Notes: a model not told the origin generated them from the letters alone. Shown: positions 1,724 to 20,086, counted from the stretch's first letter. The stretch is 42,688 nt of DNA from Burkholderiales bacterium (GCA_035251235.1 DATFEJ010000131.1:1-42688), one strand, 5' to 3'. Numbers and translations are program-made.

Positions 1724-1741
1724 GGCGGCTCTCCTTGCGGG

Positions 1742-1969: not shown

Positions 1970-1997
1970 GACCATCTCCTGTCGGGTTGCGTTTGGC

Positions 1998-2012
1998 ATG
2001 CGCATGGTGCAT
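1998..2012. promoter_or_regulatory. Candidate LysR-type T-N11-A box (ATGC-N7-GCAT)
   Basis: The dyad atgcGCATGGTgcat lies in the 85-nt divergent region between the LysR gene and the DUF2917 operon. Confidence 0.3.
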
Positions 2013-2054
2013 CCTGCCCGTCGCGCTCTCAAACGGTAAGAATTCAGGCTTTGC

Positions 2055-3597: not shown

Positions 3598-3602
3598 GTA
3601 TG

Positions 3603-4580
3603 TCAGAGCGTGAGGACGATCTTGCCGATGTGCGCGCTCGACTCCATCAGCCGGTGCGCCTCGGCGGCCTGCTCGAGCGGGAAGGTCCGGTAGATCACCG
3701 GCCTGATCTTGCCGGCGTCGATCAGCGGCCAGATGCGGCTGCGCAAGCTCGCGGCAATCGCGCCCTTGAACTCGATCGGACGCGGGCGCAGCGTCGAGCC
3801 GGTGAGGGTGAGGCGGCGGCGCATCAGCTCGTTCACGTCGAGCTCGGCCTTGGGTCCGCGCAGGAAGGCGATGAACACCAGGCGTCCGTCGTCGGCGAGC
3901 GCCTTCAGTTCCTTCGGCACGAAGTCGCCTGCCGCCATGTCGAGGATCACGTCCACGCCCTTGCCGCCGGTGGCCGACCGCACGCCCGCGACGAAGTCCT
4001 CGGTCTTGTAGTTGAAGGCCGCCTCGGCGCCGAGCTGCAAGCAGGCGGCGCACTTCTCGTCCGTGCCGGCGGTGGCGAAAACGCGGTTGCCGGTGGCCTT
4101 CGCCATCTGGATGGCGGTGACGCCGATGCCCGAAGTGCCGCCCTGCACGAGCAGCGCTTCGCCCGGGGCGAGGCGGGCGCGATCATAGACATTGGACCAG
4201 ACGGTGAAGAAGGTCTCGGGGAGCGAAGCGGCCTCCACCATGGAAAGGCCCCTGGGCACCGGCAGCGCCTGCACTTCCGGCGTCACGCAGAACTCCGCGT
4301 AGCCGCCGCCATGCGTGAGCGCGCACACCGCATCGCCCGGCTTCCACATCGTTACCGCAGCGCCGCATGCGACGACCTCGCCGGCGACCTCCAGGCCGGG
4401 CAGGTCCGAGGCGTCGGGCGGCACGGCGTAAAGGCCCATGCGCTGCAGCACGTCGGGGCGGTTGACGCCCGCCGCCGCCACCTTGACGAGGATCTCGTGG
4501 GTTTTGGGCACCGGGCGCGGGCGCTCCGCGGGACGCAGCGCCTCGGGCCCGCCGGGCTTGTCGATCTGGATGGCGCGCAT
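3603..4580 (-). CDS. qor: NAD(P)H:quinone oxidoreductase (zeta-crystallin/PIG3 MDR family)
   Basis: MRAIQIDKPGGPEAL...GVNRPDVLQRMGLY...GGTSGIGVTAIQMAK...GKIVLTL. I chose the start at ATG 4580; ATG 4592 is also possible. Confidence 0.88.
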   Translation of the reverse strand: MRAIQIDKPGGPEALRPAERPRPVPKTHEILVKVAAAGVNRPDVLQRMGLYAVPPDASDLPGLEVAGEVVACGAAVTMWKPGDAVCALTHGGGYAEFCVTPEVQALPVPRGLSMVEAASLPETFFTVWSNVYDRARLAPGEALLVQGGTSGIGVTAIQMAKATGNRVFATAGTDEKCAACLQLGAEAAFNYKTEDFVAGVRSATGGKGVDVILDMAAGDFVPKELKALADDGRLVFIAFLRGPKAELDVNELMRRRLTLTGSTLRPRPIEFKGAIAASLRSRIWPLIDAGKIRPVIYRTFPLEQAAEAHRLMESSAHIGKIVLTL

Positions 4581-4617
4581 GAAGGCGCGCATCTTAACGC
4601 AAGCGCCACGGCACATT

Positions 4618-6543
4618 ATGATGCTCGCCTCCATGCCGCGCGTTTTCGCATTCCTGGCCGTGCTTATCTTCGCGTCCGCGGCGCACGCGCGAGAGACGGC
4701 GCCGCTGCCGAGCGAACGCGGCTTCACTTCGCTCGGCGCCTACGTCGAGGTGCTGGAGGATCCGTCGCGCGCCCTGCGGCTGGAGGACGTGCGCGCGCCC
4801 GGGCACACGGAGCGATTCTCGCGCCCGGGCACCGATCCGCTCAATTTCGGCTACTCGCGCTCGGCGTGGTGGCTGCGCTTCCGGCTGCCGGGCGGCGCAC
4901 CCGCCGGCGAGGAATTGCTGCTCGAGGTGGCGTTCCCGAGCATCGACCGCATCGAGCTGCACCGGCCCGAGGCGCAGCCGGGCGGCGAGGCGCGCTACTG
5001 GGCGCGCCTGGCGGGGGACACGTTTCCCTGGGACGCGCGCGAGGTGCGCCACCGCAACTACGTATTCCGCTTTCCGGCGCCGACCGCCGCCGGCGATCAC
5101 GAGTATTACCTGCGCGTGGAATCGAAAAGCGTGGTGACCGTGCCGCTCACGCTCTGGCGCCCGGAAGCCTTCGCGGAACAGGGGCGCAGCTCGCAGCTGG
5201 TGCTCGGGCTGTTCTACGGCCTGGCGCTCGCGCTCATCCTCTACAACCTGATGCTGTTCGTCGCCGTGCGCGACGGCGTCTACGCCTACTACGTGGCGTA
5301 CGCCGTGGCGTTCGGGCTGTTCCTGTTCAGCTACGACGGGCTGGCGTACCAGTACCTGTGGCCGAACAGCGTCTGGGCGGCCAATCACGCGGTGGCGATG
5401 ACGCTGTGCCTGACGCTCGCCCTGGGCGTGCTGTTCGCGCGCGGCTTTCTCGCCACGCGGCGCGTGGCGCCGCGGGCCGACCTCGCCCTGCGCGCCATCG
5501 CCGCCACCGGCGGCACGTTGGCCCTGTTCGCCGCCACGGGCTGGGTGCTCGACTACGGCACCGTGCTGCGCATCATCTCCGTGCTCGGCTTCGCGGCCGC
5601 GGCGCTCGCCACCTACGTCGCGGTGCGCGCGCTGGTCGCGGGATACCGCCCGGCGCGCTACTTCCTGCTCGCCTGGTCGGCGCTGCTGGTGTTCATCGGC
5701 GTCGGCGCGCTGCGCAATTTCGCGCTGGTGCCGACGACTTTCGTGACCATCTACGGCCTGCACATCGGCTTCGCCCTGGACGTGCTGCTGCTGTCCTTCG
5801 CGCTCGGCGACCGCATCGGCATCCTGCGGCGCGAGCGTGCGGTGGCCCAGGCCGAGGCCCTGCAAGCGCAGCGTCGGCTGCTCGAGGCGACGCGCGAGAG
5901 CGAGCGCGAGCTCGAGCTGCGCATCGCCGAGCGCACGGCGGAGCTGAATCGCGCCAACGAGCGGCTGCGCGCCGAGGCGGGCGAGCGCGAAGGGCTGATG
6001 GCGCTGCTGCGCAACCAGGAGGAGCACCTGCGCTTCATGGCGCAGCACGACCCGCTGACCGGCCTGCCCAACCGGCTGTCGATGCAGCAGCGGCTGGCGC
6101 TCGCCATGGAGCTGGCCAAGCGCAACCGCAAGAAGCTGGCGGTGATGCTGGTCGACCTCGACGGCTTCAAGTCCATCAACGACACGCGCGGCCACCCGGC
6201 CGGCGACCAGGCGCTGGTGCAGCTCGCCTCGCGCCTGCGCACCAGCGTGCGCGGCTCGGACACCGTGGCGCGCTACGGCGGCGACGAGTTCGTCATCCTC
6301 GCCGGCGAGCTCGATCGCACCGAGGACGCCTCGATGATCGCCGAGAAGGTCGCCGACATGGTGCAGCTGCCGCTCGCGCTCGCCGGCGGGCCGACGAGCG
6401 TGTCCTGCTCCATCGGCATCAGCGTCTTTCCGGACGACGCCGAGGACGCCGAAACGCTCATCGCGCTCGCCGACAAGGCGATGTACGCGTCCCGCTCGGC
6501 GAGCGGGCAGCGCTTCGCGTTCTTCGCGCGGGCCGAGCCCTAG
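4618..6543 (+). CDS. Diguanylate cyclase with 7TMR-DISMED2 periplasmic domain, 7TMR-DISM membrane module, coiled coil and GGDEF domain
   Basis: A signal/TM segment is followed by ...NFGYSRSAWWLRFRL... (DISMED2), then seven hydrophobic helices. The GGDEF domain carries an intact RYGGDEF and an RGSD (RxxD) I-site 5 residues upstream. The start is ATG 4618 or 4633. Confidence 0.88.
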   Translation: MMLASMPRVFAFLAVLIFASAAHARETAPLPSERGFTSLGAYVEVLEDPSRALRLEDVRAPGHTERFSRPGTDPLNFGYSRSAWWLRFRLPGGAPAGEELLLEVAFPSIDRIELHRPEAQPGGEARYWARLAGDTFPWDAREVRHRNYVFRFPAPTAAGDHEYYLRVESKSVVTVPLTLWRPEAFAEQGRSSQLVLGLFYGLALALILYNLMLFVAVRDGVYAYYVAYAVAFGLFLFSYDGLAYQYLWPNSVWAANHAVAMTLCLTLALGVLFARGFLATRRVAPRADLALRAIAATGGTLALFAATGWVLDYGTVLRIISVLGFAAAALATYVAVRALVAGYRPARYFLLAWSALLVFIGVGALRNFALVPTTFVTIYGLHIGFALDVLLLSFALGDRIGILRRERAVAQAEALQAQRRLLEATRESERELELRIAERTAELNRANERLRAEAGEREGLMALLRNQEEHLRFMAQHDPLTGLPNRLSMQQRLALAMELAKRNRKKLAVMLVDLDGFKSINDTRGHPAGDQALVQLASRLRTSVRGSDTVARYGGDEFVILAGELDRTEDASMIAEKVADMVQLPLALAGGPTSVSCSIGISVFPDDAEDAETLIALADKAMYASRSASGQRFAFFARAEP

Positions 6544-8186
6544 AAGCTGGACTTCGATTCCATCGTCAGCTGGTACGAGTCCAACCCGGGCTCGCGTCTG
6601 AGGGGGAAGGCGATGTCCAGGTGCAGCGTGGTGCCGGTCGCGGAGCGCGCGCTGAGCAGCCGCAGCCCGAAGCCGACGTTCGCGGACCAGTGCGCGTCCG
6701 GGAAATTCTGGTAAGGCTCGCCCCAGGCCCGGCCCACGTCGTAGAAGACGGCGCCGCCGACGCGGATCAGCCGCAGCGGATACCAGTCGCTGTACAGGCG
6801 CTGCTCGGCGGTCAGCAGCACCCGCCGGCTGCCCAGCTGGTAATTGGAGGGATAGCCGCGCAGGCCGGTATCGCCGCCGAGAGACAGGTACTGCGTGGCG
6901 TCCGAGAACTCGGTCGCGTCACCGGAGAGCGCGACGTAGAGCAGCGCCCCGCTGCCGCGGCGCTGGTAGTAGCGCAGCGCACCGCCCAGCACGACGCGGT
7001 CGTTTTCGCCGTTGGCGTACTCTCCCGACACCGCCGCGGAGGCGAGCAGCGTGCGATCGCCGTGGAAGCGGAATCCTTGGCTGACGCCGGCCGCGTACCA
7101 GGTGATCAGGTCCGTGGAGCCGAGGCCGGGCGTGGAGCGCCCCACCTGCACGCTCGCCTGCAGGCCGAGCGCCTGGTATTCCGGACGCCCGATGCTTTGG
7201 ACGTTGGTGACTTCACGGAAGTCGTCCTCGACCACCTCGTAGCGCAGATACGGGCCGGCCCGCAGGCGGTCGCCCGGCAGCGTCGCCGGCGCGCGCGGGT
7301 CGTTCTCGTACCGGTCGCGCAGATAGCTCAGGCCGAGCGAGAAGCGGTTCGCCCAGCCGTTCACCAGGCCCGGCGACCATCCGCCGGAGACGTCCGCGCT
7401 TTCCGTGCTGCGGTAGAACCGCCCGGCCTCGGCGCCGCCGGCATACTGGGTGAGCAGCCGGTTGTCGGTGGCGACCGAGAAGTTGCCCGCGCCGCGCGCG
7501 TCGAGCGCGTAGAACGGGCGCGTCACGTTGAACGAGCGGCTGTCGCCGTCGTCGAAGTTCGCCTGCGCATAGGCGACGGTCGTGCGACCGTCGAACGCAT
7601 ACGGGTAGCTCACGCCGAAGTCCACGCCGCTCGGCGTTCCGCCGGCGGTGGTGACCTCCGTGGTCGAGCGTGTCGACAGGGTCAGCCGCGCGCCCGTGCC
7701 GAAGAGGTTGTACTCGCTAATGCGCGCGCCGCTGGTGGTCGTGCCCCCCGCGCTCTCGAGGCTCGCGCCGAACTGCAGGGTCCAGGAATCTCGCGTGCGC
7801 ACCTCCAGGTCGACGACGCCGTCGCGCCACGCGATCGGCCGGATGCTCGCCTGGTACAGGTAGCGGTTGCCGCGCAGCAGGCGCTCGGATTCGAGCACGC
7901 GCTGCGCGACGAGCTTCTCGCCGCTGCGGAACAGCAGCTGATTGCGGATCACGTGGGGCCGGGTCTGGATGTGGATGCCATTGGCGAGCCGGAAGAGCCA
8001 GTTGTTCTCCGCCGGATCGTCGAGGTTGAAGACGTCGTCGGCGGCGATGCGGATCTCGCCGATGACCGCGCCGGCGGCCTCCAGTTCCGCCAGGGAAGGC
8101 AGCGCGGCCGGCGTGGGCGCCTCCTCGGCGTTAACGGCGCACGCGATGAAGGCGAGCAGCGCGGCAGCGAGCGCGCGCGGGCGCAA
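6540..8186 (-). CDS. Omp85-family outer membrane protein with a single POTRA-like N-terminal domain
   Basis: The signal peptide reads MRPRALAAALLAFIACAVNA. A POTRA-like segment follows, then a beta-barrel with alternating hydrophobic pattern, the LGGDTGLRGY loop-6 motif and a C-terminal Phe. Confidence 0.8.
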   Translation of the reverse strand: MRPRALAAALLAFIACAVNAEEAPTPAALPSLAELEAAGAVIGEIRIAADDVFNLDDPAENNWLFRLANGIHIQTRPHVIRNQLLFRSGEKLVAQRVLESERLLRGNRYLYQASIRPIAWRDGVVDLEVRTRDSWTLQFGASLESAGGTTTSGARISEYNLFGTGARLTLSTRSTTEVTTAGGTPSGVDFGVSYPYAFDGRTTVAYAQANFDDGDSRSFNVTRPFYALDARGAGNFSVATDNRLLTQYAGGAEAGRFYRSTESADVSGGWSPGLVNGWANRFSLGLSYLRDRYENDPRAPATLPGDRLRAGPYLRYEVVEDDFREVTNVQSIGRPEYQALGLQASVQVGRSTPGLGSTDLITWYAAGVSQGFRFHGDRTLLASAAVSGEYANGENDRVVLGGALRYYQRRGSGALLYVALSGDATEFSDATQYLSLGGDTGLRGYPSNYQLGSRRVLLTAEQRLYSDWYPLRLIRVGGAVFYDVGRAWGEPYQNFPDAHWSANVGFGLRLLSARSATGTTLHLDIAFPLRREPGLDSYQLTMESKSSF

Positions 8187-9201: not shown

Positions 9202-10023
9202 ATGCCACGCATGGACTACTCCAAATACCAGGACCTGAACTGCCGGCTGATCGAGCCGGGCATCCTCGAGATCGTGATGGGCGACGAGGCGAGCGGCAAG
9301 CTCTCCACCGCCGGCCGGCGCATGCATGCCGAGCTCGCCGAGATCTGGCGCGACGTGGACCGCGACCCCGCGGTGCGCGTCGCCGTCCTGCGGGGCGCGG
9401 GCAAGGGCTTCTCGGCGGGCGGCGATTTCGGCCTGATCGAGGACATCATCCAGGATTTCGAGACGCGCGCGCGCGTCTGGCGCGAGGCGCGCGACCTCGT
9501 CTACAACATCATCAACTGCTCGAAGATCGTGGTCTCGGCGATGCATGGTCCCGCGGTAGGTGCGGGACTGGTGGCCGGGCTGCTTGCCGACATCTCCATC
9601 GCGGCGAAGAACGCGCGCATCATCGACGGCCACACGCGCCTGGGCGTCGCCGCGGGGGACCATGCGGCGATCGTCTGGCCGCTGCTGTGCGGCATGGCGA
9701 AGGCCAAGTACTACCTGCTCACCTGCGAGCAGGTGTCGGGCGAGGAGGCGGAGCGCATCGGCCTGGTGTCGCTTTGCTGCGAGGAAGCCGAGCTGCAGGC
9801 CAAGGCGCTGGAGGTGGCGCGCAAGATCGCGCTGGGCGCGCAGACGGCGCTGCGCTGGACCAAGTACAGCCTGAACAACTGGCTGCGCATGGCCGGCCCG
9901 ACGTTCGACGCTTCGCTCGCGCTGGAGATGCTGGGCTTCACCGGGCCAGAAGTGCGCGAGGGCGCCGCATCGCACCGCGAGAAGAGGAAGCCCGTCTTTC
10001 CGCCGGAGCCGAAGGACTTCTAG
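9202..10023 (+). CDS. Enoyl-CoA hydratase/isomerase (crotonase) family protein
   Basis: [14 protein letters not shown]...[10 protein letters not shown]...[13 protein letters not shown] are classic crotonase fold motifs. Confidence 0.9.
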
Positions 10024-10286
10024 GCGGCGAGCAGGCGCTCCAGGTCGCGCGCCACCACCGCCGGGTCGGGCGGCACGCGGCCCTGGGTGGTGAGCAGCAC
10101 GCGCACCGGCAGGTCGACCAGCGTGGGCTCGGGATGATCGCGCAGGTGCGCGAGGTTCTGCAGCATCGGCAGGATATGCTGGCTCTTGGTCCCGGCCATC
10201 GCGCTTTCCACCCCCTGGATGATCGCGTGCTGGGCGCGCGCGATGCCGATGAGAAGTTCGGCGAGCTGTTGCGCGGAAATTTCCAT
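10020..10286 (-). CDS. Hypothetical protein (88 aa)
   Basis: The internal ATG ([12 protein letters not shown]...) is preceded by GGGGGAGAA. The composition is non-repetitive and protein-like. I recognise no family. Confidence 0.45.
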
Positions 10287-10336
10287 GGTGTTCTCCCCCT
10301 CGGCGGATGTCGCGCCGATGGTAGCATCGAGCATTG

Positions 10337-10849
10337 ATGCTGCGTCGCCCGGTTGCCGCCCTCGCCCTGGTCGTCGCCGGCGCGGCAACGGGCCTGGCGC
10401 TGCACCTTGCTACCGTGCAGGGGGACACGATGTTTGCCGGAAAGCGGCCCACCTATCTCGGCGTCAAGGACGGACGCCTGCCGCGACCGCGGAGCACGCC
10501 CAACTGCGTGTCGAGCCAGGCCGATCCTGCTGACAAGGTGCATTACATCGAGCCGATCCGCTTCGAGGGCACGGCGCCCGAGGCGTTGGCCATGGCGCGC
10601 AAGGCCGTGGAGGGCATGCCGCGTGCCACCGTCATCCGGCACGAGGGCAACTACCTCTACGCGGAATTCCGCTCCAGGGTGATGGGCTTCGTCGACGACG
10701 TGGAGTTCACCTACGACGAGAAGGCGCAGGCGCTGCACGTGCGCTCGTCCTCGCGGCTCGGGCGCCGCGACTTCGGGGTCAATCGCAAGCGCGTCGAGGC
10801 CTTGCGCTCGCGCATCGAAGGCCAGCGCAAGGCCCAGGCGCGCCGGTGA
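10337..10849 (+). CDS. DUF1499 domain-containing protein
   Basis: An N-terminal TM/signal segment is followed by ...PNCVSSQA...YIEP...EFRSRVMGFVDDVEF...VRSSSRLGRRDFGVNRKRVE, which is the DUF1499 signature. The stop overlaps the next start (GTGA). Confidence 0.8.
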   Translation: MLRRPVAALALVVAGAATGLALHLATVQGDTMFAGKRPTYLGVKDGRLPRPRSTPNCVSSQADPADKVHYIEPIRFEGTAPEALAMARKAVEGMPRATVIRHEGNYLYAEFRSRVMGFVDDVEFTYDEKAQALHVRSSSRLGRRDFGVNRKRVEALRSRIEGQRKAQARR

Positions 10850-11844
10850 CGACCATGGCCAACGCGTTGCGCATCCTGCTCGTCGCGCTCGGATTGTGCG
10901 CGGGGCCAGCGGCGGCGCAGCGCCCGTCCGACGCCGAGGTGCAGGCCACGCTTTCCGCGGTGGTGCACGTGCAGTCCCGGATCCTTCCCGACGCGCGCAC
11001 CGCGCAGTCGCTGGGCATGCGCCGCGAAGGGACGGGCATCCTGGTGCGCGAGGGCTACGTGCTCACCATCGGCTATCTGGTCATCGAAGCCGAGTCGGTC
11101 GAGGTCACCTCCGCCAGCGGCGCCACGGTGCCCGCGTCGCTCGCCGCCTACGATCATGCGAGCGGCTTCGGGCTGCTCAAGCTGGCCGCGCCGCTCGCCG
11201 GCAAGCCGTTGCCGCTGGGTGATGCGTCGGCGCTTGCCGAGCGCGACGCCGCGATGGTGGTCGGTTACGGCGGCCGCGATGCGCTCAATCTCGTGTACGT
11301 CGTGTCGCGCCGCGCGTTCGCGGGCAGCTGGGAGTACCTGCTCGACTCCGCGATCTTCACGTATCCGCCGGTGCAGAGCTGGTCCGGTGCCGCGCTGATC
11401 AGCGCGCGCGGCGAGCTGCTCGGCGTGGGTTCGCTCATCGTGCCGGACGCCGGCGGCCCGGGCACGCAGACGCCGGGCAACCTGTTCGTGCCGGTCGACC
11501 TGCTCAAGCCCGCGCTCGACGACCTGATCGCCCACGGTCGCGCCGCTGGTCCGATCCGTCCCTGGCTCGGCCTGAACGCGGAGGAGCTGCGCGGACGGCT
11601 GTACGTCTCGCGGGTCTCGCCGGAGGGGCCCGCCGACCGTGCGGGACTGCGCAGCGGGGATCTCCTGCTCGCCGTGGGCGGCGAGGATGTCGGCTCGCTC
11701 GCCGATTTCTATCGCAAGCTGTGGGCGCGCGGCGCTGCGGGCACCGAGATTCCCCTGCGCGTGCTGCAGGGATCGCAGACAAAGGAGTTGCGCGTGCGCT
11801 CGATCGACCGGCTCGAGTACCTGCGCCGCAAGCCGAGCTATTGA
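10846..11844 (+). CDS. S1C (HtrA/DegP-like) trypsin-fold + PDZ protein, catalytic triad apparently degenerate
   Basis: It has a signal peptide, a trypsin-like core (GTGILVREGYVLTIGYLV...SGFGLLKL...SWSGAALIS) and a C-terminal PDZ (LYVSRVSPEGPADRAGLRSGDLLLAVGG). The start is GTG 10846 or ATG 10855. Confidence 0.8.
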   Translation: MTTMANALRILLVALGLCAGPAAAQRPSDAEVQATLSAVVHVQSRILPDARTAQSLGMRREGTGILVREGYVLTIGYLVIEAESVEVTSASGATVPASLAAYDHASGFGLLKLAAPLAGKPLPLGDASALAERDAAMVVGYGGRDALNLVYVVSRRAFAGSWEYLLDSAIFTYPPVQSWSGAALISARGELLGVGSLIVPDAGGPGTQTPGNLFVPVDLLKPALDDLIAHGRAAGPIRPWLGLNAEELRGRLYVSRVSPEGPADRAGLRSGDLLLAVGGEDVGSLADFYRKLWARGAAGTEIPLRVLQGSQTKELRVRSIDRLEYLRRKPSY

Positions 11845-12734
11845 TGTCCCCGGGGCGGCGGGACGCGGCGCAGCTGCGCGTCCTGGCCCGCGCGCGCCAC
11901 GACCAGCGCGTAACGCGCGTTCTGCTGCATCGCCTGCAGGTAGAGATTCTGTCCGCCGAAGTGCCGCGCGGCGAAGTCGTAGGCGCGCGCGAGCTGCAGG
12001 TCCAGCCGCTGCGTCGCGACCATGCAGAAGGCGTGCGTGCGCCGCACCAGGTCGATGCCCGAGCGCGCCAGCCGGCCCGCGAGCCCACCGGCGACGAGCT
12101 CCGGGTAGAGGCGGTCGCGGCGCTTCTCCAGGTAGCAGCGGTCCGACATCTGCGCGATCAGGTCCGCGGTGCCCAGCATCTGGCCCACGCGGCGCAGCAG
12201 CGTATCGTCGACGCGGATCGATTCGGCGCGGCGCTCGTGCCCGGTGTAGTGCACCAGCGCCGCCGCATCGTCGGCATGCTGCGCAAAGCCCGCCACGCGC
12301 AGGTACGCGCGCAGGAACGTCGCGCTCCTGCTCACGCGGGACAGGGTGTAGCGCGCGCCATGCCCGTGGCGGCGGTCGCTGCGGCGCCGCAAGTAGCCGA
12401 CGTCGTGGAACAGCGCGCTCAGCACGCCGACATGGAAGGCCGCGGGGGGCAGCTGCGCGCACCCCCGGCGGCCGCGCTCGTAGCCGTCCATCAGGCGCGC
12501 CATGGCGAGCGTCGCGTCGAGCACATGCTGCAGGTCGTGGAACTCGGTGTCGCAGGCATGGAAGGCGGGGTGCCGGCCCTGGTAGAGCTGCACCGCGTGG
12601 TCGAATCCCTGCTGCAGGGGATCGGCGGGCGCGCCCGGATACAAGGCGCGATAGATGCGCAGGACCTCCGTGCCGACCGCGCTCGCATCGGTCGTCCGTA
12701 CGGTATCGGTCACATCGTGATCGTTGCGGCGCAT
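11838..12734 (-). CDS. HD-domain metal-dependent phosphohydrolase
   Basis: The H...HD...D pattern is present: TEFHDLQHVLD ... SALFHDVGYL ... GTADLIAQMSD. Confidence 0.75.
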   Translation of the reverse strand: MRRNDHDVTDTVRTTDASAVGTEVLRIYRALYPGAPADPLQQGFDHAVQLYQGRHPAFHACDTEFHDLQHVLDATLAMARLMDGYERGRRGCAQLPPAAFHVGVLSALFHDVGYLRRRSDRRHGHGARYTLSRVSRSATFLRAYLRVAGFAQHADDAAALVHYTGHERRAESIRVDDTLLRRVGQMLGTADLIAQMSDRCYLEKRRDRLYPELVAGGLAGRLARSGIDLVRRTHAFCMVATQRLDLQLARAYDFAARHFGGQNLYLQAMQQNARYALVVARAGQDAQLRRVPPPRGHQ

Positions 12735-12898
12735 CGCTTGCCCGACCCCCTATGCGCACCTGCGCGGAGGCGCTAGGATGCTCGGCACCGGCCCATGGAT
12801 GCGGTGAACTTTTTCACGGCCCGCGGCAAAGGCGGGCAAGCGATCGTCATCCGGCGCGGGTGGTGCCGGCACGGGGCAGGGCGGGCCGCGTGAGCAAC

Positions 12899-13111
12899 AT
12901 GCCGTTGACTGCCGAGGAGCGCGCGCAGATCGAGGCGCGCATCGAGGTCCTGGAAACCGAGCACCGCGACCTGGACGACGTCATCGCGCGCCTGGCCGCC
13001 GATCCGACGCAGGATCAGTTGCAGCTGCGGCGCATGAAGAAGAAGAAGCTCCTGCTGAAGGATCTGATCGCGCGGCTGCGCGACCGTCTGATTCCCGACA
13101 TCGTCGCGTGA
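12899..13111 (+). CDS. DUF465 (YdcH-like) small protein
   Basis: It reads [32 protein letters not shown]...[20 protein letters not shown], the characteristic DUF465 pattern. This is the tail of an artefactual 490-aa ORF. The stop overlaps the dtd start (GTGA). Confidence 0.8.
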
Positions 13112-13563
13112 TTGCCCTGTTGCAGCGCGTCGCCGAGGCGCATGTGGCTGTCGCCGGCGAGGAGGTGGCGCGCATTGGCCACGGGATGCTGGCGCTGGTC
13201 GGGGTCGAGCGCGGCGACTCGCCGCGCGAGGCCGAGCGGCTCGCCGAACGGGTGCTCGGCTACCGCATCTTCGCCGACGCCGAGGGCCGCATGAACCTCG
13301 CGCTGGCGGATGTCGGCGGCGCGCTGCTCGCGGTGCCGCAGTTCACGCTCGCCGCGGACACGCGCAGCGGTACGCGGCCCGGCTTTTCCACCGCGGCGGT
13401 CCCGGAGGCGGGCCGCGCCCTGTTCGATGCGTTCGTGCACGCCTGCCGTGCGCGGCAGGCGGAGGTCGCCTGCGGGCGGTTCGGTGCCGACATGCAGGTC
13501 AGTCTCGTGAACGACGGGCCCGTGACTTTCTGGCTGCAGGTTTCTCCGCGTCCCGCGTCTTGA
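13108..13563 (+). CDS. dtd: D-aminoacyl-tRNA deacylase
   Basis: [13 protein letters not shown]...GMLALVGV...VLGYRIF...MNLAL...LAVPQFTL...G.RPGF...[19 protein letters not shown] is canonical Dtd. Confidence 0.92.
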
Positions 13564-13918
13564 AGTCCGCCGGCGCGACCACCTCGATCATCTCCAGGTC
13601 CGGCGAGTGGCGGATCTCGCGGTGGCGGATGTTGGGCGGCTGGTAGAAGCAGGTGCCCGCCTTCATGCGCACGCGGCCGACGCCCTCGTACTCGAACACC
13701 GCCCAGCCCTTCAGCACGTAGACGAACTGCACCCGGCAGTCGTGCCGGTGCCACTGGCCGTGCGGCGCCTTGCCGCGCCGCGCGCGGATGACATGCGCGA
13801 CGACCTTGCCGCGCGTCGCCCGGCGGATGCCGAGATCGCGGTACTCGAAGTAGCTGCGCAGGCCGCGACGGGCGAACTTCGCGCGCGCCCGGTGGCTGAC
13901 CATGAAGCCGTGTTTCAT
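13499..13918 (-). CDS. Cupin domain-containing protein
   Basis: [23 protein letters not shown]...[15 protein letters not shown] are cupin motifs 1 and 2. The 3' end overlaps dtd convergently by 65 nt. Confidence 0.75.
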
Positions 13919-13952
13919 GCGACGTTCCTCCCCGGATGGCTTGCCGGCGGCC

Positions 13953-16658
13953 TCAACGATACTCCGGCTGCACGCGCGTCAGGTAGTCCTCGAGCTGCGC
14001 CGCCAGGCCGCTGACGGCGGCGGCATCTTCGCGCTTGGATCGCTCCTCGATGGCCTTGCCGATGCGCGTGATCTCGTCGAATCCATAGCTGCCGCCGACG
14101 CCGCTCAGCGAATGCCCGATGGCGCGCGTGGCGGAGAAGTCGCCACCGTCCAGCGCCGAGCGCAAGCGCAGTACGTCGCGCCCGCAGTTGGAAAGAAAGC
14201 GCACGGCGAGCGCGCGCAGGCGAGCGTCCACGGTGACGCGGATCGCGTTCGCGCCGGCGGCCGGCGCGGGCGGCGCGGCGCCCTCGGACAGCGGCGCCAG
14301 CAACTCGCGCAGGCGTTCCGGGGAAACGGGCTTGCTGATCACATCGTCGCAGCCCTCGATCAATGCCCGCTCGACGGGAGCCCCGGCCTGGTGCGCCGTG
14401 AAGCCGATCACCGGGCGCGTGTAGCCGCGCTCGCGCAGCACGCGCACCGTCTCGTAGCCGTCCATGAACGGCATGTCCATGTCGAGCAGCACCACGGTGT
14501 AGGGCTCGGCGAGGGCTGCCTCGATCGCCTCGAGCCCGTCGCCGACGGCCTTGCAGGCGAAGCCGATGTCCGCGAGCTGCGCCTGCACCAGGTCGCGCAG
14601 GTCGGCATTGTCGTCGGCGAGCAGCACGCGGCCGGAAAGCCTGGCGGGTGCCGGCGCGGGGGCCGGGGCGGGTGCCGCCGCGGGTGCCGGAAGCCGCGCC
14701 TCGGGGGCCGGGATGCGCACCTCGAAGCTCGAGCCCACGCCCACCTGCGAGCGCGCGTGCAGCGCGCCGCCCATCAGCTCGACCAGCCTCTTGGTAATCG
14801 ACAACCCCAGTCCCGTTCCCGCGGCCGTCACGCCGGGCGCGCGCTGGAAGGGGACGAAGATGCGCTCCAGGCTGTCGGCGGGAATGCCCGGGCCGGTGTC
14901 GCGCACTTCGCAGCGCAGCTCGCCGTCGCGCCAGGTGGCCGTCAGCGTCACCGTCCCCGCGGCCGTGAACTTGATCGCGTTGCCCAGCAGATTGATGAGC
15001 ACCTGGCGCACGCGGAACGCGTCGAGCATGAGCGCCACGGGCACCTCGGCGGCCACGTCCTGCTCCAGCGCGAGCTGCTTCTCGTGCGCCATCACCCGCA
15101 GGGTGGCCACGACGTCCTCGATCAGCGCGCGCGCCTCGTGCGGCGTGCGGTTGAACGTGAACTGGCCCGCTTCCATGCGCGCCAGATCGAGGTTGTTGTT
15201 GACCAGCGCCAGCAGGTGCTCGCAATTGCGCGCGATGATGCCGCTGTGGCGCAGGCGCTGCTCCTTGCCGATGTCGTCGCCGTACAGGTTGAACTTGTTG
15301 AACCCCATGATCGCCGTGATCGGCGTGCGCAGCTCGTGCGTCATGTGGTTGAGGAACTCGGTCTTCAGGCGCGTGGCTTCCAGGGCGGCGGCCTTCTCGT
15401 AGTGCAGGCGCTGCCTTTCCTGGTGGAGCGCGAACAGCCAGGCGGCGAGCGCCGCGGCGTATGCGCCCAGTCCCGCGACGGCCGCGAACAGCCAATGCGA
15501 CTGCTGGGCAGCCATTGCCAGGCCGAGGACGGCGCCGATCAGCACGAGCGCCAGGGCGCCCAGCCCGAGGGCGAAGTCCCGCGGCGGCGGAGCGGCGCCG
15601 CGGAACGCCAATCCTGCGGGCAGCGCGAGCGCGATCAGCACGAGCAACGCGTTTAGCCACGCCCGCGGCGGGCCCAGTACCTTGCCGGCGCGCAGGCTCT
15701 CTACGATGAGCGCGTTGACGTACAGGCCCGGCAAGCGCCCGACCGGCGTCTGCGCGAAGTCGCCGAGCACGGCGCTCGAGCTGCCGACGAGGACGATGCG
15801 ATCGCGCACCAGGTCGGCGACATGCGCGGTCCCCGCGGCGCCGTCCGCGGCATCCACGATCTGATGGAAGGGGATGACGGACAGCGCGGAGAGGTTGGCG
15901 GGAAGGCGCGGCGCGATGCTGCCGTCATCGGCCATCGGCCAGGACAGGTCGCCGGCGTGCAGGCGAGCGCCGACGATCCGCAATTGCCGGCTGGGCTCCG
16001 CCGCCAGCAGCGCCGCGACGGAAAATGCGGGCAGGACCCTGCCATAGGCAAGGTGCAGCGGCCTGACGCGCCGCACGACGCCATCGTCGTCGGCCGCCGT
16101 GCTGAAGACCGCCACGCGCGCTCCGGAGTCGCGCGTCAGTTGCGCGAGCGGCAGCGTCAGGTCGTTCCAGGCGTATGCGTGTGCGGCGACGTCCGGGGCG
16201 GCCGAAGCTTCCAGCGGCGCCACGGCGGCAAGATGCTCCAGGTACTGCCGGGATCGCACGTAGGGATACGGCAAGGCTGCGGCCGCCAGCACGCCGCGCC
16301 GGTCGAGCGCGGCGGCGAAGGCATCGTCGCCTTCGCGCGGCTCGGCGAACAGGATGTCGTAGGCGACGGCGCGCGCGCCGCTTCCTGCGAGAAAGCGGTG
16401 CGCCTTGGCATAGACGTCGCGGCCATACGGCCAGGCGCCGATTTTCGGCTGCAGATGCTGCATCGATGCTTCGTCGACGTCCACCACCACGACGCCGTCG
16501 AGCGGCAACGCGGCGGCAAGCCGCCGCTGCAGCGCATCATCGACCCACCAAGACAGGCGCGGGAAGAGATCGGAGTAAGCGAACAGGGTCGCCAGCGCCA
16601 GCCCGGCGGCGGCCACGGCCAGCACGCGCACCCAAGGCAGGTAGGAACGCGATTGCAC
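13953..16658 (-). CDS. CHASE2-domain hybrid sensor histidine kinase (CHASE2-TM-HisKA-HATPase-REC-Hpt)
   Basis: The N-terminal TM is followed by VVVVDVDEASM...WPYGRDVYA...AYDILFAEP (CHASE2), then three C-proximal TM helices. The kinase core has the H-box HELRTPITAIMGF, N-box LINLLGNAIKFT, and G-boxes DTGPGIP and GTGLGLSI. A Pro-Ala linker leads to the REC domain (VLLADDN...LLDMDMPFMDG...KP) and an Hpt domain (HSLSGVGGSYG). The start is GTG. Confidence 0.9.
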   Translation of the reverse strand: MQSRSYLPWVRVLAVAAAGLALATLFAYSDLFPRLSWWVDDALQRRLAAALPLDGVVVVDVDEASMQHLQPKIGAWPYGRDVYAKAHRFLAGSGARAVAYDILFAEPREGDDAFAAALDRRGVLAAAALPYPYVRSRQYLEHLAAVAPLEASAAPDVAAHAYAWNDLTLPLAQLTRDSGARVAVFSTAADDDGVVRRVRPLHLAYGRVLPAFSVAALLAAEPSRQLRIVGARLHAGDLSWPMADDGSIAPRLPANLSALSVIPFHQIVDAADGAAGTAHVADLVRDRIVLVGSSSAVLGDFAQTPVGRLPGLYVNALIVESLRAGKVLGPPRAWLNALLVLIALALPAGLAFRGAAPPPRDFALGLGALALVLIGAVLGLAMAAQQSHWLFAAVAGLGAYAAALAAWLFALHQERQRLHYEKAAALEATRLKTEFLNHMTHELRTPITAIMGFNKFNLYGDDIGKEQRLRHSGIIARNCEHLLALVNNNLDLARMEAGQFTFNRTPHEARALIEDVVATLRVMAHEKQLALEQDVAAEVPVALMLDAFRVRQVLINLLGNAIKFTAAGTVTLTATWRDGELRCEVRDTGPGIPADSLERIFVPFQRAPGVTAAGTGLGLSITKRLVELMGGALHARSQVGVGSSFEVRIPAPEARLPAPAAAPAPAPAPAPARLSGRVLLADDNADLRDLVQAQLADIGFACKAVGDGLEAIEAALAEPYTVVLLDMDMPFMDGYETVRVLRERGYTRPVIGFTAHQAGAPVERALIEGCDDVISKPVSPERLRELLAPLSEGAAPPAPAAGANAIRVTVDARLRALAVRFLSNCGRDVLRLRSALDGGDFSATRAIGHSLSGVGGSYGFDEITRIGKAIEERSKREDAAAVSGLAAQLEDYLTRVQPEYR

Positions 16659-16771
16659 ACTGTCCTATCGGGGCATAGTGAGCGACAATTCTAGAGGAAT
16701 TCCTCAGCGCGGCCGTCCGCCCCGGGGGCGTCGGCGATGGCTGCCCAACGGCGCCGGGATTCAACACACTC

Positions 16772-18118
16772 ATGCGCCGTCGTGCCAGAGAAGTCGTATT
16801 GTTGTTGCTCGTCGCCTTGTCGATGGCGATGAGCGGCCGCGTTGCCGCGCAGACTCCGCTCGAAGAAGTTCTCGCCAGGGCGGCCGCGCTGACTGCCGCG
16901 GGCCAGCACACCGAGGCCTACGCGCTGCTTTCCGCGGAAGAGGACACTCATATCGGCGAGATCAAGTTCGACTACGTGCTCGGGCGCGCGGCGCTTTTCG
17001 CCGGGCGCCCGGATCGGGCGACGATCGCGTTCGAGCGCGTGCTGGCGCTCGATCCGGGCCATGCCGGCGCGCGCATCGACATGGGGCGCGCGTACCTCGC
17101 GCTCGGCAACCTGGCGCAGGCGGAAGTCGCGTTCCAGGCGCTGCTCGACATGGATCCGCCGCCAGCGTTGCGCGCGCAGTTGCTCATCTACCTCGGCGAA
17201 GCACGCGCGGACCGAAAGCGCAAGGTGGCTGCCCGGGGCTACCTGAGCGTGTTTGCCGGCGCGAGCTCCAACGTCAATCAGGCGCCCGGCCAGGGACAGT
17301 TCTTCGTGCCGGGATTGCTCGCGGTGCTGCAGCTCGCTGACCAGAACATCGCCAAGGACGACACGTTCGCGGGGATCGGTGGCGGCGTCGAGGCGGCGAG
17401 GCCGCTGAGCGGACGTTACTCGCTGATCGCGGCCGCCGAGTTTCTCGCCCGCCAGAACACGCACTATTCCGACTTCGACGTGGGCGGAATCTGGGGAAGC
17501 ATGGGCATTGCGCATACGGGCGACCTGCACGTGGTGCGCGCGCAGTTGCAGCTCGTGAATGGCACGCTGGGTGGAGACACGAGCCGCAGGGTCGAGGCGG
17601 TAAGCGTCGACGTGACGGAGACGTCCGCGGCTGACGGCTCGCTGGGCTGGATGTTCGCCTTTGCGCACGCCGGCCGGACCCGGCATCCGCCGGCCGACCT
17701 GCAGATTTTCGATGCCGACTTCCTTACTGTCGGCATCGGTGCAAACCTGAAATTTGACGAGAAATCGACAGCGAGTGTCGCCTTCCTGGCGGGTGGCGAC
17801 AACGACCAGGGCGGAAATCCGAGCGGCGACCGTTTCGGGATCGGATTTCGCCTTGCAGGCGAAAGGGTTATTGCGCCTGGATGGCGATTGTTCGGCTTGC
17901 TTGGAGCGTTGAATTCGCGCTACGACGGGTTTGACCCGTCCTTCCTCGTGTATCGCGAGGACCGGCGCTGGGATCTGGAACTCATTGTTCGGCATGACCT
18001 TTCCAGGGACCTTGAACTGCGTGTCGGGGCCATACGCACGGTCCAGGATTCGAACGTCCCGATCTATGAATACACGCGGACGGACTGGTCGATCGGCCTG
18101 CGGTACCAGTTCAACTGA
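16772..18118 (+). CDS. TPR + DUF560-like 14-strand outer-membrane barrel (Slam / type XI secretion system-like outer membrane protein)
   Basis: The signal peptide is ...SGRVAA/QTP. About 130 aa of TPR repeats follow (AGQHTEAYALL..., LDPGHAGARIDMGRAYLALGNLAQAEVAFQALL). The barrel opens with GYLSVFAGASSNVNQAP and ends ...RTDWSIGLRYQFN. Length and architecture match Slam/NilB-type proteins. Confidence 0.65.
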   Translation: MRRRAREVVLLLLVALSMAMSGRVAAQTPLEEVLARAAALTAAGQHTEAYALLSAEEDTHIGEIKFDYVLGRAALFAGRPDRATIAFERVLALDPGHAGARIDMGRAYLALGNLAQAEVAFQALLDMDPPPALRAQLLIYLGEARADRKRKVAARGYLSVFAGASSNVNQAPGQGQFFVPGLLAVLQLADQNIAKDDTFAGIGGGVEAARPLSGRYSLIAAAEFLARQNTHYSDFDVGGIWGSMGIAHTGDLHVVRAQLQLVNGTLGGDTSRRVEAVSVDVTETSAADGSLGWMFAFAHAGRTRHPPADLQIFDADFLTVGIGANLKFDEKSTASVAFLAGGDNDQGGNPSGDRFGIGFRLAGERVIAPGWRLFGLLGALNSRYDGFDPSFLVYREDRRWDLELIVRHDLSRDLELRVGAIRTVQDSNVPIYEYTRTDWSIGLRYQFN

Positions 18119-18227
18119 GGGTGGGTCAGAATTTGTCAGGGCGAGGTACCCTGGGGCTGTCCACAGGCCTGATAGTTGCTGCATTGTTCATGCGACGTCA
18201 GCCAATCCAATTGCGGGTGGAGGCTAT

Positions 18228-19634
18228 ATGAGAAAAGGTCTCATCTTTCTAGGTCTGGTGGTCGGTGCCGCGGGCGCTGGCCAAGCGCTTGCGCAAACCG
18301 CGGGCGTCATCCAGTTCGCTGCTGGCGCGGTCAAGGTCGTGGCGCCTGGCGGCGCCGAGCGCGAGGCCCGCAAGGGCGTGGCGGTCAACGTGGGCGATAC
18401 CCTGACGACGCCCGCCGGCGGCCTTGCCCAACTGAAAATGGGCGACGGCGCGATCGTCGTCGTGCAGCCCGAGTCCCGCCTGACCGTGGCCGAGTTCCAC
18501 TATGCCGGCGTCGAAGACGGCAACGAGAAGGTGCGCTATCGCCTCGAGCATGGCGGCTTCCGCGCGGTGACCGGCGCCATCGGCCGCACCCACAAGAAGA
18601 ACTACCTGATCGAAACGCCGATCGCCCACATGGGCGTGCGCGGCACCGACCACGAGTCCTATTACTTCCCGGCCACCGGGCCGGTGAGCGGCGATGGCGT
18701 GAAGCCCGGCGCCTTCAACAAGGTGAACACTGGCAGGACCTACCTGCGCACGCAAGCGGGCGAAGTCGAGATCGAGCCGAACCAGGTGGGCTTCGTCGCC
18801 AGCGCCGGCGAGGTGCCCACGATCCTGCCGAGCGTCCCGGAGTTCTTCAATCGCTCCATCGCCCCGCGCAACGCGGGTCGCTCGCCGAAGCACATCCCGG
18901 ATGCTGCCGAATTGGCGCTCGTGGAGCGGGCGCCCGATGAAAGTTTGGCCAACGAGGTTCGGCTTCTTCGCACGCGTGGACCGAGAGTCACGCCAGGAAG
19001 CGGAGAAGGCCCGCTGGTCGCTTTCTCGAAGCAGGTGGGGAAAGATGGGGGCTTCGGCGAATCCGGCAATGGCGTGACGGTTGAAGTGCACGACGCGCAG
19101 TCGACCACGGGCAGCTTCGGAACCGCCATCAACTGGACGACCTGGTCCGGCGGAGAGGTGAAAGTCGGCGGTGTGAAGACGGCCGGTGCGACGCAGGTCA
19201 TCTCGACGACGGACAAGACGGACCTCCTCGCGGCACTGCCGGCGCTCCCCGTCAGCGCGACGTATTCGTACAGCGGCGTCGGTCCGGCTCCGACCAACCA
19301 GGCGGGCACGTCGGGCGTGATCAATTCGCTGAACGTGGGCGTCAGTTTCAGTACCCAGAAGATCACCAGCTACGACCTCAACGCAACGGCTGGCGGAACC
19401 ACCTGGAATTCGAGCTTGAACACCACGGCCCCGCACTCGATCACGAATTTCACCGATGCTGGGGGGATCCGCTTGACCGGGACCTGCACCACGTGTGGGG
19501 GCACGACCGCCGGTACCGCGCACGGCACCTTCGTTGGCTCGCAGGCGGAGAACCTGATCACCACTTTCGGCTTGAGCGGCTCTGCAAGCCAGTCTCTGAA
19601 CGGAGCGGCGGTCCTCAGCCGCCCGCTGCCGTAA
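18228..19634 (+). CDS. Secreted FecR-domain protein with C-terminal TbpB-like (Slam/T11SS cargo-type) beta-barrel domain
   Basis: GGAGG lies 4 nt upstream of the ATG. The Sec signal ends ...AGQALA/QTAG and has no lipobox Cys. The FecR domain spans aa 26-145 (VKVV..G..R.A.KG..VNVGDTLTTPAGGLAQLKMGDGAIVVVQPESRL...IETPIAHMGVRGTDH). The C-terminus spans aa 296-466 (W..W...ALPVSATYSYSGVG...INSLNVGVSFSTQKITSYDL...GTAHGTFVGSQAENLITTFGLSG...LNGAAVLSR). Confidence 0.7.
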   Translation: MRKGLIFLGLVVGAAGAGQALAQTAGVIQFAAGAVKVVAPGGAEREARKGVAVNVGDTLTTPAGGLAQLKMGDGAIVVVQPESRLTVAEFHYAGVEDGNEKVRYRLEHGGFRAVTGAIGRTHKKNYLIETPIAHMGVRGTDHESYYFPATGPVSGDGVKPGAFNKVNTGRTYLRTQAGEVEIEPNQVGFVASAGEVPTILPSVPEFFNRSIAPRNAGRSPKHIPDAAELALVERAPDESLANEVRLLRTRGPRVTPGSGEGPLVAFSKQVGKDGGFGESGNGVTVEVHDAQSTTGSFGTAINWTTWSGGEVKVGGVKTAGATQVISTTDKTDLLAALPALPVSATYSYSGVGPAPTNQAGTSGVINSLNVGVSFSTQKITSYDLNATAGGTTWNSSLNTTAPHSITNFTDAGGIRLTGTCTTCGGTTAGTAHGTFVGSQAENLITTFGLSGSASQSLNGAAVLSRPLP

Positions 19635-19645
19635 GACGCAACCCC

Positions 19646-20086
19646 GTGGCCGCCACCCCAGACCGCCGCAACGTCCTGATCGTCGACGATCACGAGCCGA
19701 CGCGGCTCCTGATCGGCCGCATCGTGACGCAGGAAATGGGCGCGCGTGTCATGCTGGCCGGCACCTGCGAGGAGGCGCTGCACCTCGCGCTGCAGACGAA
19801 GTACGACATCATCCTGCTCGACCTGCTCATGCCCGGCATCGGCGGATATGAGGTGCTGCGGCGCCTGCGCGCCGAGGGCGCCAACCGCGCGACGCCGATC
19901 CTGGTCGTGTCGGTGATGTCGGACCATGACTCGATCGAGCGCTGCCGGCTGCTCGGCGCGACGGCCTTCGTCGCCAAGCCGGTGGACCGCGAGCTGGTGA
20001 CGACCATGCTGCGCAGCCTGCTCGCGCCCAAGCACGCGGACGCGCAGCCGGCGAAACGTACCGACCTGCGGGACAACGGCAACTAG
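19646..20086 (+). CDS. Single-domain response regulator (CheY-like receiver, no output domain)
   Basis: NVLIVDDHEPTRLL...DIILLDLLMPGIGG...PILVVSVMSD...AFVAKP gives a full receiver with acidic pocket, phospho-Asp, Ser/Thr and Lys. I chose the GTG start 11 nt after the upstream stop; it has no clear SD. Confidence 0.8.
   Translation: MAATPDRRNVLIVDDHEPTRLLIGRIVTQEMGARVMLAGTCEEALHLALQTKYDIILLDLLMPGIGGYEVLRRLRAEGANRATPILVVSVMSDHDSIERCRLLGATAFVAKPVDRELVTTMLRSLLAPKHADAQPAKRTDLRDNGN

Follow-up and report, generated by a model that had tools for sequence, protein, structure and literature searches.

How a sensor anchored in the inner membrane might be informed of events at the cell surface is the question raised by a module of four genes at positions 13953-20086 of a 42,688-nt stretch of DNA from a Burkholderiales bacterium (GCA_035251235.1 DATFEJ010000131.1:1-42688; G+C ~70%), the whole of which we refer to as the window. 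On the minus strand lies a hybrid histidine kinase with a CHASE2 domain (13953..16658; 901 aa, GTG start), CHASE2 being a common bacterial sensor domain for which we know of no ligand. On the plus strand, starting exactly 113 nt from the kinase start, is a gene for an outer-membrane protein (OMP) resembling Slam and other OMPs of the type XI secretion system (T11SS) (16772..18118; 448 aa, ATG start), followed by genes for its predicted cargo, an exported protein with a FecR domain (18228..19634; 468 aa), and for a stand-alone receiver domain (19646..20086; 146 aa, GTG start). What is new here is a T11SS with a new class of cargo, apparently coupled to a CHASE2 relay; T11SS themselves, and associations of CHASE2 with FecR, were already known. 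All of the evidence for the module is computational.

The four open reading frames (ORFs) and the divergent gap between the first two were found by ORF mapping exactly where a preliminary description of this DNA had placed them, and an independent gene caller returned identical products of 901, 468 and 146 aa from two other assemblies of the same sequence. The cargo start is ATG 18228, with GGAGG ahead of it, and GTG 19646 is most likely the start of the receiver. The receiver GTG comes 11 nt after the cargo stop, but the tight operon of which the preliminary description had spoken has a 109-nt spacer between OMP and cargo.

The OMP and its predicted cargo

By transitive homology and topology, the OMP appears to be a divergent member of the DUF560/T11SS family. 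An N-terminal signal peptide is followed by a periplasmic TPR domain (~16856-17203) and a predicted 14-strand β-barrel (~17228-18112). In Pfam, the window protein has several TPR matches (residues 68-134) and one weak generic OMP_b-brl match, and none to PF04575 (DUF560/SlipAM; gathering score 22 bits) at E ≤ 1. Its homologues, however, do reach that family. A search of 5.8 billion proteins returned 229 of them; the 120 that were listed are mostly ~420-470 aa long, with a few longer or fragmentary, and where their source names them they are TPR or outer-membrane proteins. Two homologues that are 47-49% identical (P0104, 25.0 bits; P0107, 26.8 bits) exceed the PF04575 cut-off, and so do more distant ones encoded beside homologous FecR genes: the OMP of locus L017 scores 51.0 bits (E 1.9e-13, profile positions 11-288 of 288), and those of L019 and L018 score 39.0 and 23.1 bits over the whole profile. 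For the OMPs of L027 and L028, PF04575 matches with E of at most 1e-5 are on record. The window barrel in turn matches the L017 OMP at E 3e-21, and the distant OMPs overall at E 3e-21 to 1e-51. A model of the OMP made with AlphaFold2 (AF2) from 31 homologues (predicted local distance difference test score, pLDDT, 83) has 9 helices in residues 29-144 and then 14 strands in residues 153-447, the barrel-plus-TPR structure that the preliminary description had expected, and it matches the topology given for T11SS OMPs, which have 14 strands as against 16 in PgaA (PMC8406197). Because the homologues pass PF04575, the window barrel is homologous to theirs and the topology fits, we keep the earlier label of a DUF560-like protein, although Pfam does not give it to the window protein itself.

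Against the PDB, Foldseek gave the OMP model its highest target-normalised TM-scores with the 14-strand barrels CymA and OmpG, and its top E-values with the 16-strand BcsC, which shares the overall layout of TPR and barrel. As no Slam structure was among these matches, what they confirm is a generic 14-strand barrel with TPR; a PDB sequence search with the OMP profile found TPR proteins only. A polysaccharide-export OMP of the BcsC, PgaA, PelB or BBP2/EpsL kind is ruled out by the 14 strands, the full-length SlipAM matches of the homologues and the adjoining protein cargo; weak BBP2_2 matches to the last barrel strands were seen in 20 of the 31 homologues. The segment between strands 1 and 2 (17258-17362; residues 163-197) carries an invariant run, G-x-S-x-N-V-N-Q-x-P-x-Q ... 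P ... L-x-x-Q-N, and is modelled with low confidence. It includes the invariant loop S-N-V-N-Q-A-P, to which a D-S-N-V-N-S-A-P in a Chromatiales OMP is comparable, and may be a plug or gating loop.

The cargo begins with what reads as a Sec signal peptide without a lipobox (18228-18293; MRKGLIFLGLVVGAAGAGQALA/QT), and a cysteine lipobox is found in 0 of its 34 homologues. There follow a FecR-like N-domain (18294-18863), which scores 30.6-31.1 bits against PF04773 (cut-off 24) and is matched in all 34 homologues; a low-complexity linker of ~45 residues (18864-18992), poorly conserved, modelled with low confidence and predicted to be disordered; and, from the AF2 model, a handle subdomain (18993-19244) and an eight-strand barrel of the TbpB type (19245-19631). 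In this model, built from the 34 homologues, residues 260-468 are mostly above pLDDT 85 in 10-residue blocks and form a small β subdomain (263-327) and then eight strands (343-464); the first half of the FecR domain is moderately confident. The Pfam family of such barrels, PF01298 (TbpB_B_D; gathering score 26 bits), has no match in the window protein and weak ones in 4 of the 34 homologues, the best relatives reaching 18.4 bits (E 0.001-0.003), below the threshold. The top 47 Foldseek matches in the PDB, by contrast, are all TbpB (including its C-lobe), fHbp, HphA, hemophilin or NHBA (E 7.5e-6 to 1e-2), and a profile of 20 diversified C-domains has as its best PDB sequences the TbpB C-lobe 5kkx (E 0.001) and TbpB 4qq1 (E 0.006), both aligned over the barrel motifs. 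In predicted fold, if not by PF01298 score, the cargo C-terminus is a TbpB-type handle with an eight-strand barrel, as the preliminary description had supposed. All of its domain assignments are in fact borne out by Pfam, homologues or predicted structure. Of the families it proposed for checking, CHASE2 and FecR exceed their Pfam cut-offs on the window's own proteins whereas PF04575 and PF01298 do not match them, so that it is from homologues and structure prediction that the OMP is assigned to DUF560 and the cargo C-terminus to the TbpB barrels.

The first 70 residues of the mature cargo show a further likeness, to the retention module of LapA and MpIBP (NF033682; 25.9 bits, E 8.9e-6, with a cut-off of 50 bits), and cargo residues 20-92 match PDB 5ix9 (E 0.004), the template for modelling the LapA retention module (bioRxiv 10.1101/198937). 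Two motifs stand out. Inside the FecR domain, R-G-T-D-H-E is invariant (18639-18656; residues 138-143), its G-T pair being reminiscent of the G191-T192 site at which the FecR-family anti-sigma factor FoxR cleaves itself (PMC11637429). In a loop of the barrel (19485-19526; residues 420-432), C420-x-x-C423 and H432 are nearly invariant (LTGTCTTCGG...AHG), and the C-x-x-C motif recurs in both lobes of a Chromatiales homologue (LTGTCTGC); these residues may be joined in a disulfide or may bind a metal or a ligand.

Spread of the pair and its association with CHASE2

Loci were collected through homologue look-ups with the OMP and the cargo and through a scan of species-representative genomes, which with narrow search patterns gave 16 loci, all in metagenome-assembled genomes (MAGs); they were mapped with local phmmer and hidden Markov model (HMM) searches. 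The arrangement recurs on more than 20 independent contigs, with cargo FecR domains 60-84% identical and whole cargo proteins down to 46%, so that it is not due to chance. A JGI metagenome scan with an alignment of the FecR N-domain returned at least 590 relatives, from which 80 loci were kept and counted from local maps. In the window's subclade (FecR at least 60% identical) the OMP lies directly upstream of the cargo in 10 of 12 loci and a CHASE2 gene is present in 7 of 7; in the other loci (FecR 39-50% identical) the OMP lies directly upstream in 48 of 51, whereas CHASE2 is present in 0 of 34, with no such gene within 10 kb of the pair. Among metagenome loci with enough flank, 58 of 63 have the order OMP, then cargo. 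Loci at 31-42% identity, from Gallionellaceae, 'Ca. Ferrigenium' and other MAGs, likewise keep the OMP and FecR protein, with no CHASE2 gene within 8 kb; a Zoogloeaceae MAG has two such pairs, and 'Ca. Ferrigenium straubiae' also has the pair, both without CHASE2. The pair being far more widespread than its link to CHASE2, it has a function of its own, with the kinase a lineage-specific addition. The OMP-cargo pair is an ancient and widespread unit.

The size of the cargo family became apparent when 1.84 billion cluster representatives (clustered at 50% identity) were searched exhaustively with HMMER: 737 clusters match with E ≤ 1e-30, 4886 with E ≤ 1e-10, and the longest protein has 3351 aa. 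Among 136 new distant representatives, 132 have the FecR N-domain and 109 have one to eight TbpB-like lobes, which were found only with an HMM of our own for the lobe; on six giant relatives, Pfam gives the FecR domain as sole annotation. The last lobe ends at the C-terminus in 92 of the 109, as expected of a C-terminal secretion signal. Proteins that combine a FecR N-domain with TbpB-like lobes and are encoded right after a DUF560 OMP thus form a large family. The texts of two T11SS survey papers make no mention of FecR-domain cargo, CHASE2 or histidine kinases, and in a T11SS survey supplement FecR appears only as a neighbourhood domain, alongside the sigma-70 r2 and r4 domains of extracytoplasmic function (ECF) sigma factors. 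The earlier remark that no T11SS involvement had been described holds for the literature searched, in which we found neither a FecR-type T11SS cargo nor a link between T11SS and CHASE2.

Within the window's subclade, CHASE2 was present not only in the JGI loci but in all 16 other loci where the flank sufficed, and the kinase is invariably adjacent to the pair. Where cargo identity is 46-100% and enough flank is available, the layout is constant: the kinase is on the minus strand, and on the plus strand are the OMP and the cargo, as a rule with the receiver after them, the genes flanking the module being housekeeping genes in partly syntenic order. In most subclade loci the cargo gene is followed by that of the receiver, which is truncated in three (L004, L005 and L006); the more divergent half of the window's clade has a gene for Hpt alone, as well as a second receiver. 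The claim that the four genes are conserved together stands for the window's clade but not for the distant loci, which keep the pair without CHASE2. Two loci, L013 and L015, come from entries titled 'uncultured Enterobacteriaceae bacterium', and all other carriers are Betaproteobacteria or Burkholderiales MAGs; the two labels are probably wrong.

Outside that clade, CHASE2 occurs in a locus (L030) of a Chromatiales MAG, a gammaproteobacterium, in the order OMP, CHASE2-adenylate/guanylate cyclase and FecR cargo with two lobes. The OMP matches the barrel HMM at E 3.9e-26 and the two lobes match at E 5.5e-12 and 2e-13, and the CHASE2 domain is only 26% identical to that of the window. As the same triad occurs in another class with a different output, the shared element is the sensor domain and not the output domain. 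Published associations point the same way, and bear out the statement in the preliminary description that FecR genes often neighbour CHASE2 genes: a Burkholderia operon encodes a response regulator, a LysM-FecR protein and a CHASE2 kinase (PMC5192318), and a cluster in Campylobacterota encodes a CHASE2 cyclase, a phosphodiesterase, an OMP with a FecR domain and a TPR protein (PMC9239204). In Sinorhizobium meliloti, moreover, genetics have shown that the CHASE2 cyclase CyaK cannot signal without the OMP NsrA (PMC7529298, PMC13001267). Together with the Campylobacterota cluster, this makes the earlier statement that no such module had been described experimentally too strong. Given that the link is invariant in the subclade, that the triad recurs in the Chromatiales locus and that the literature connects CHASE2, FecR and OMPs, we regard the CHASE2 link as meaningful and a functional coupling of the T11SS OMP-cargo pair to the CHASE2 relay as likely.

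All five Pfam domains of the kinase score above their gathering thresholds, and their residue ranges translate, on the minus strand, to ~15624-16601 for CHASE2 (135 bits), 15165-15365 for HisKA (49 bits), 14703-15023 for HATPase_c (98 bits), 14298-14627 for the internal receiver (Response_reg, 80 bits) and 13968-14201 for Hpt (35 bits). Read by eye, one hydrophobic stretch precedes CHASE2 (before residue 30) and three follow it (~345-420), and the protein is a CHASE2 hybrid sensor kinase with an Hpt domain, in which CHASE2 is flanked by putative transmembrane segments. The stand-alone receiver scores 80.8 bits against Response_reg and has no second domain in Pfam.

The divergent intergenic region (16659..16771, 113 nt) is conserved in its own right. 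In a DNA alignment of seven loci whose proteins are only ~55-70% identical, a block of ~55 nt at 16659-16712 is nearly invariant. Its sequence is ...GTGAGCGACAATTCTAGAGGAAnTCCTCAGCGCG..., within which are the palindrome GAGGAATTCCTC and a repeat resembling TGTCC-N5-GGACA. As an RNA element the block has no Rfam match and shows no covariation, and for this reason the two divergent genes probably share it as a promoter or operator; a scan of the locus for consensus sigma-70 promoters and for terminators gave nothing above shuffled background.

Location of the FecR domain

We propose that the cargo would enter the periplasm via Sec, that the OMP would recognise its C-terminal TbpB-type barrel and place the C-terminal lobe on the cell surface, and that the FecR-like N-domain would fold and stay in the periplasm as a retention and signalling module, the ~45-residue linker threading the pore. 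The periplasmic FecR domain would then touch both the TPR domain of the OMP and the CHASE2 domain, so that ligand binding to the surface lobe, pulling on it or its loss might alter kinase activity, with phosphate flowing from HisKA by way of the internal receiver and then Hpt to the stand-alone receiver. A T11SS pair, a retained FecR domain and a CHASE2 relay together make the best explanation of the locus that we can offer, and one to which we give not quite an even chance. The specific topology, with the C-terminal lobe exposed through the pore and the FecR domain in the periplasm reporting to CHASE2, is more tentative, and the fullest version is doubtful: that a T11SS builds a signalling device spanning the outer membrane, its cargo lodged in the pore and its FecR domain a direct input to CHASE2, and that proteins with a FecR N-domain and one to eight TbpB-like lobes are a large undescribed class of cargo in environmental Proteobacteria.

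A periplasmic FecR domain is favoured because CHASE2 is itself periplasmic, because the linker is predicted to be disordered, and because of the likeness to LapA and MpIBP and the pattern of conservation. Across the family, the FecR N-domain is 80-83% identical, as against 48% for the linker, 47% for the handle and 57% for the barrel (47-57% for C-domains); in the OMP, the periplasmic TPR domain is 70% identical and the barrel 50%. The parts that would face the periplasm are thus the constrained ones. In LapA, the retention module remains in the periplasm and tethers the adhesin through an outer-membrane pore (bioRxiv 10.1101/198937).

A number of observations weigh against this proposal. Known T11SS cargo cross the outer membrane entirely, and retention of an N-domain is without known precedent in T11SS. 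The likeness to the retention module lies below the NCBIfam cut-off (25.9 versus 50 bits), AF2 confidence is low for cargo residues 116-251, and the window's OMP and cargo are below the Pfam thresholds for PF04575 and PF01298. Two Leptospira FecR-domain proteins, Lsa33 and LipL45, which are weak NCBIfam matches, are named as a surface adhesin and a lipoprotein, which shows that an extracellular position is possible for a FecR domain. The CHASE2-linked module is carried by a group of uncultured soil bacteria, all of them Betaproteobacteria or Burkholderiales MAGs, and the occurrence of the pair without CHASE2 in 34 of 34 more distant loci implies that the FecR domain does not need CHASE2.

That last observation also suits the alternative that survives best, though we still think it unlikely: the pair would be a surface adhesin or nutrient-capture protein, and the CHASE2 relay would only be co-regulated with it from a shared divergent promoter, the cargo having no part in signal perception. 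The strongly conserved intergenic block would then be explained, relatives of up to 3351 aa with up to eight tandem lobes do look like adhesins, and some loci adjoin giant DUF11/SdrD or TPS proteins. The module, however, encodes no DNA-binding regulator, which leaves the relay without an evident regulatory route, and a CHASE2 cyclase inserted between a homologous OMP and cargo, as in the Chromatiales locus, suggests that it is the sensor domain through which the link is made. The recurrence of CHASE2-FecR associations in the literature (PMC5192318, PMC9239204) also speaks against mere co-regulation.

The preliminary description had preferred another view, that the whole FecR-TbpB-like protein is exported or displayed on the surface by the T11SS and serves as an extracellular, ligand-capturing co-sensor for the kinase. 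Known T11SS cargo, the non-lipidated hemophilin type included, are indeed translocated whole (PMC8406197, PMC12282271), the signal peptide of the cargo here is of the Sec type and lacks a lipobox, annotation makes surface adhesins of the FecR-domain proteins of Leptospira, and the subclade keeps all four genes together. A wholly exported FecR domain, though, would be separated by the outer membrane from a CHASE2 domain that our reading of the transmembrane segments by eye places at the inner membrane; it could not touch CHASE2, and no return path is encoded. It would also be unusual for the most conserved domain to be one exposed at the surface, and predictions for other CHASE2-FecR systems put the FecR protein in the periplasm (PMC5192318). 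Conservation and the likeness to LapA and MpIBP fit a periplasmic FecR domain better, and we now consider full export improbable.

We give equally little credence to a complex that is periplasmic throughout, in which nothing is secreted, the OMP is itself the surface sensor, the FecR protein is an adaptor between TPR and CHASE2, and the C-terminal barrel binds a small periplasmic ligand. Its model is NsrA, an outer-membrane barrel that is required for CHASE2 cyclase signalling and is proposed to be a surface sensor (PMC7529298, PMC13001267), and both the conservation of the TPR and FecR domains above all other parts and the invariant OMP loop between strands 1 and 2 are in keeping with it. Yet T11SS export has its signatures in the TbpB-type barrel, which is C-terminal in 92 of 109 relatives, and in the strict order of DUF560 OMP, then cargo, and one can hardly imagine multi-lobe proteins of two to three thousand residues serving as adaptors in the periplasm. 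Classical FecIR signalling is ruled out, as there is no anti-sigma domain, sigma factor or TonB-dependent receptor, gene calls covering ~10 kb upstream and 2.7 kb downstream having found no ECF sigma factor or TonB-dependent receptor.

To our knowledge, the known T11SS cargo are nutrient-capture or host-interaction proteins, and the only genetics tying CHASE2 to the cell surface are those of NsrA and CyaK in one rhizobium. T11SS were defined recently, and in a 2021 survey their nine environmental clusters had no characterised members. By joining a T11SS with CHASE2, the locus indicates that FecR-domain proteins are a large family of cargo of environmental T11SS that has so far gone without annotation. 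It also singles out a specific protein as a likely partner of CHASE2, in a combination seen with two outputs, kinase and cyclase, and suggests a route by which CHASE2 sensors might read signals at the cell surface. If the FecR domain is retained in the periplasm, as we propose, this would be the first T11SS cargo anchored through its own pore; and if a pore-lodged device is built, the orphan CHASE2 family would gain a defined kind of partner.

Known systems with similar parts, and other loci

The closest working analogies of the proposed mechanism would be NsrA-CyaK, FecA-FecR, LapA-LapE and RcsF with its OMP; for the secretion step, the comparison is with characterised T11SS pairs (Slam1-TbpB, Slam-fHbp, HrpB-hemophilin, NilB-NilC and TepS-Pls). 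The window shares with these an OMP with N-terminal TPR and a predicted 14-strand DUF560-like barrel, an adjoining gene for a cargo with a C-terminal handle and eight-strand barrel of the TbpB type, and, with hemophilin, the non-lipidated class of cargo. It differs in that the N-terminal 'effector' of the cargo is a FecR-like domain, in that its carriers are environmental Betaproteobacteria and not the animal-associated cluster 1, in the linkage of the pair to a two-component relay, and in Pfam scores below threshold.

In NsrA-CyaK and the Campylobacterota cluster, a CHASE2 sensor of the inner membrane likewise depends on, or clusters with, an OMP, a FecR domain and a TPR protein, and the Chromatiales locus consists of exactly OMP, CHASE2 cyclase and FecR cargo. 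Their output is a cyclase, whereas that of the window is a hybrid kinase, and NsrA is reported to be a single protein of ~1200 aa with the barrel fused, in place of separate genes for a DUF560 barrel and a TbpB-like cargo. When the OMP and cargo were compared by tblastn with a collection of 72,556 plasmids, the cargo had a single marginal FecR match, the OMP had none, and neither showed sequence similarity to the S. meliloti replicons in that collection. The FecA-FecR-FecI system also uses a FecR-family periplasmic domain to relay from an outer-membrane barrel to a signalling protein at the inner membrane. The FecR protein of the window, in contrast, has neither a cytoplasmic anti-sigma domain nor a transmembrane helix, its FecR domain coming directly after a cleavable signal peptide, and the receiver of the signal would be the CHASE2 kinase.

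With LapA-LapE and MpIBP the cargo has in common an N-terminal β-rich module next to a flexible linker, with weak sequence similarity to the retention module; conserved termini around a variable middle, and relatives with many repeats, are found both in LapA-like adhesins (bioRxiv 10.1101/198937) and in the cargo family. Secretion is different, by type 1 through a TolC-like pore as opposed to Sec and T11SS, and the LapG/LapD release circuit governed by cyclic di-GMP is absent from the window locus. RcsF spans the outer membrane through the lumen of a β-barrel, and the relay that it informs of envelope events is made up of a hybrid kinase, Hpt and a response regulator. The combination of an outer-membrane-spanning sensor with a multi-step relay is similar to that proposed here; the proteins are unrelated, the polarity is opposite to that of the proposed cargo (a lipid anchor outside and the signalling domain in the periplasm), and assembly is by BamA, with no dedicated secretion pore. 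Operons of the BiofilmReg/PA4032-PA4036 type (response regulator, LysM-FecR, CHASE2-PAS kinase and DUF4136) also place an exported FecR protein beside a CHASE2 kinase and a response regulator in Burkholderiales (PMC5192318). They differ in that the FecR protein has LysM and is predicted to be periplasmic, in lacking an OMP and a TbpB-like domain, and in having a non-hybrid kinase and a DNA-binding regulator of the OmpR/CreB type.

A few other loci have unusual surroundings. In L016, a distant locus, the frame of the TPR-barrel OMP is open for 2460 codons upstream (472-7854), with DUF11 and SdrD_B domains, and the FecR gene is followed by one for a 2056-aa protein with DUF7933, DUF11 and SdrD_B domains (9382-15552); the giant OMP frame is either a real fusion to a giant surface protein or an assembly artefact. 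'Candidatus Symbiobacter mobilis' (L029; CP004885.1 194724-210142) has a related FecR protein between a giant TPS exoprotein (TPS, ESPR) and a POTRA_2/ShlB transporter, so that such a FecR domain is also associated with type 5b secretion. A Gallionellaceae MAG (L018) has two FecR genes flanking an OMP and directly after them, at 13534-15822 on the minus strand, an adenylate/guanylate cyclase that is cytoplasmic, has the domains GAF-GAF-PAS and may provide a link to signalling that does not involve CHASE2.

Elsewhere in the window, a second, short FecR-domain protein is encoded on the minus strand at 36082-36885 (267 aa; PF04773 34.5 bits), with no CHASE2 nearby among the ORFs of at least 200 aa that were scanned. 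An EgtD-like histidine methyltransferase lies near it at 34921-36069, and an autotransporter β-domain OMP gene ~1.5 kb away (38425-39519, minus strand), with a spermidine-synthase-like gene on the opposite strand between the two.

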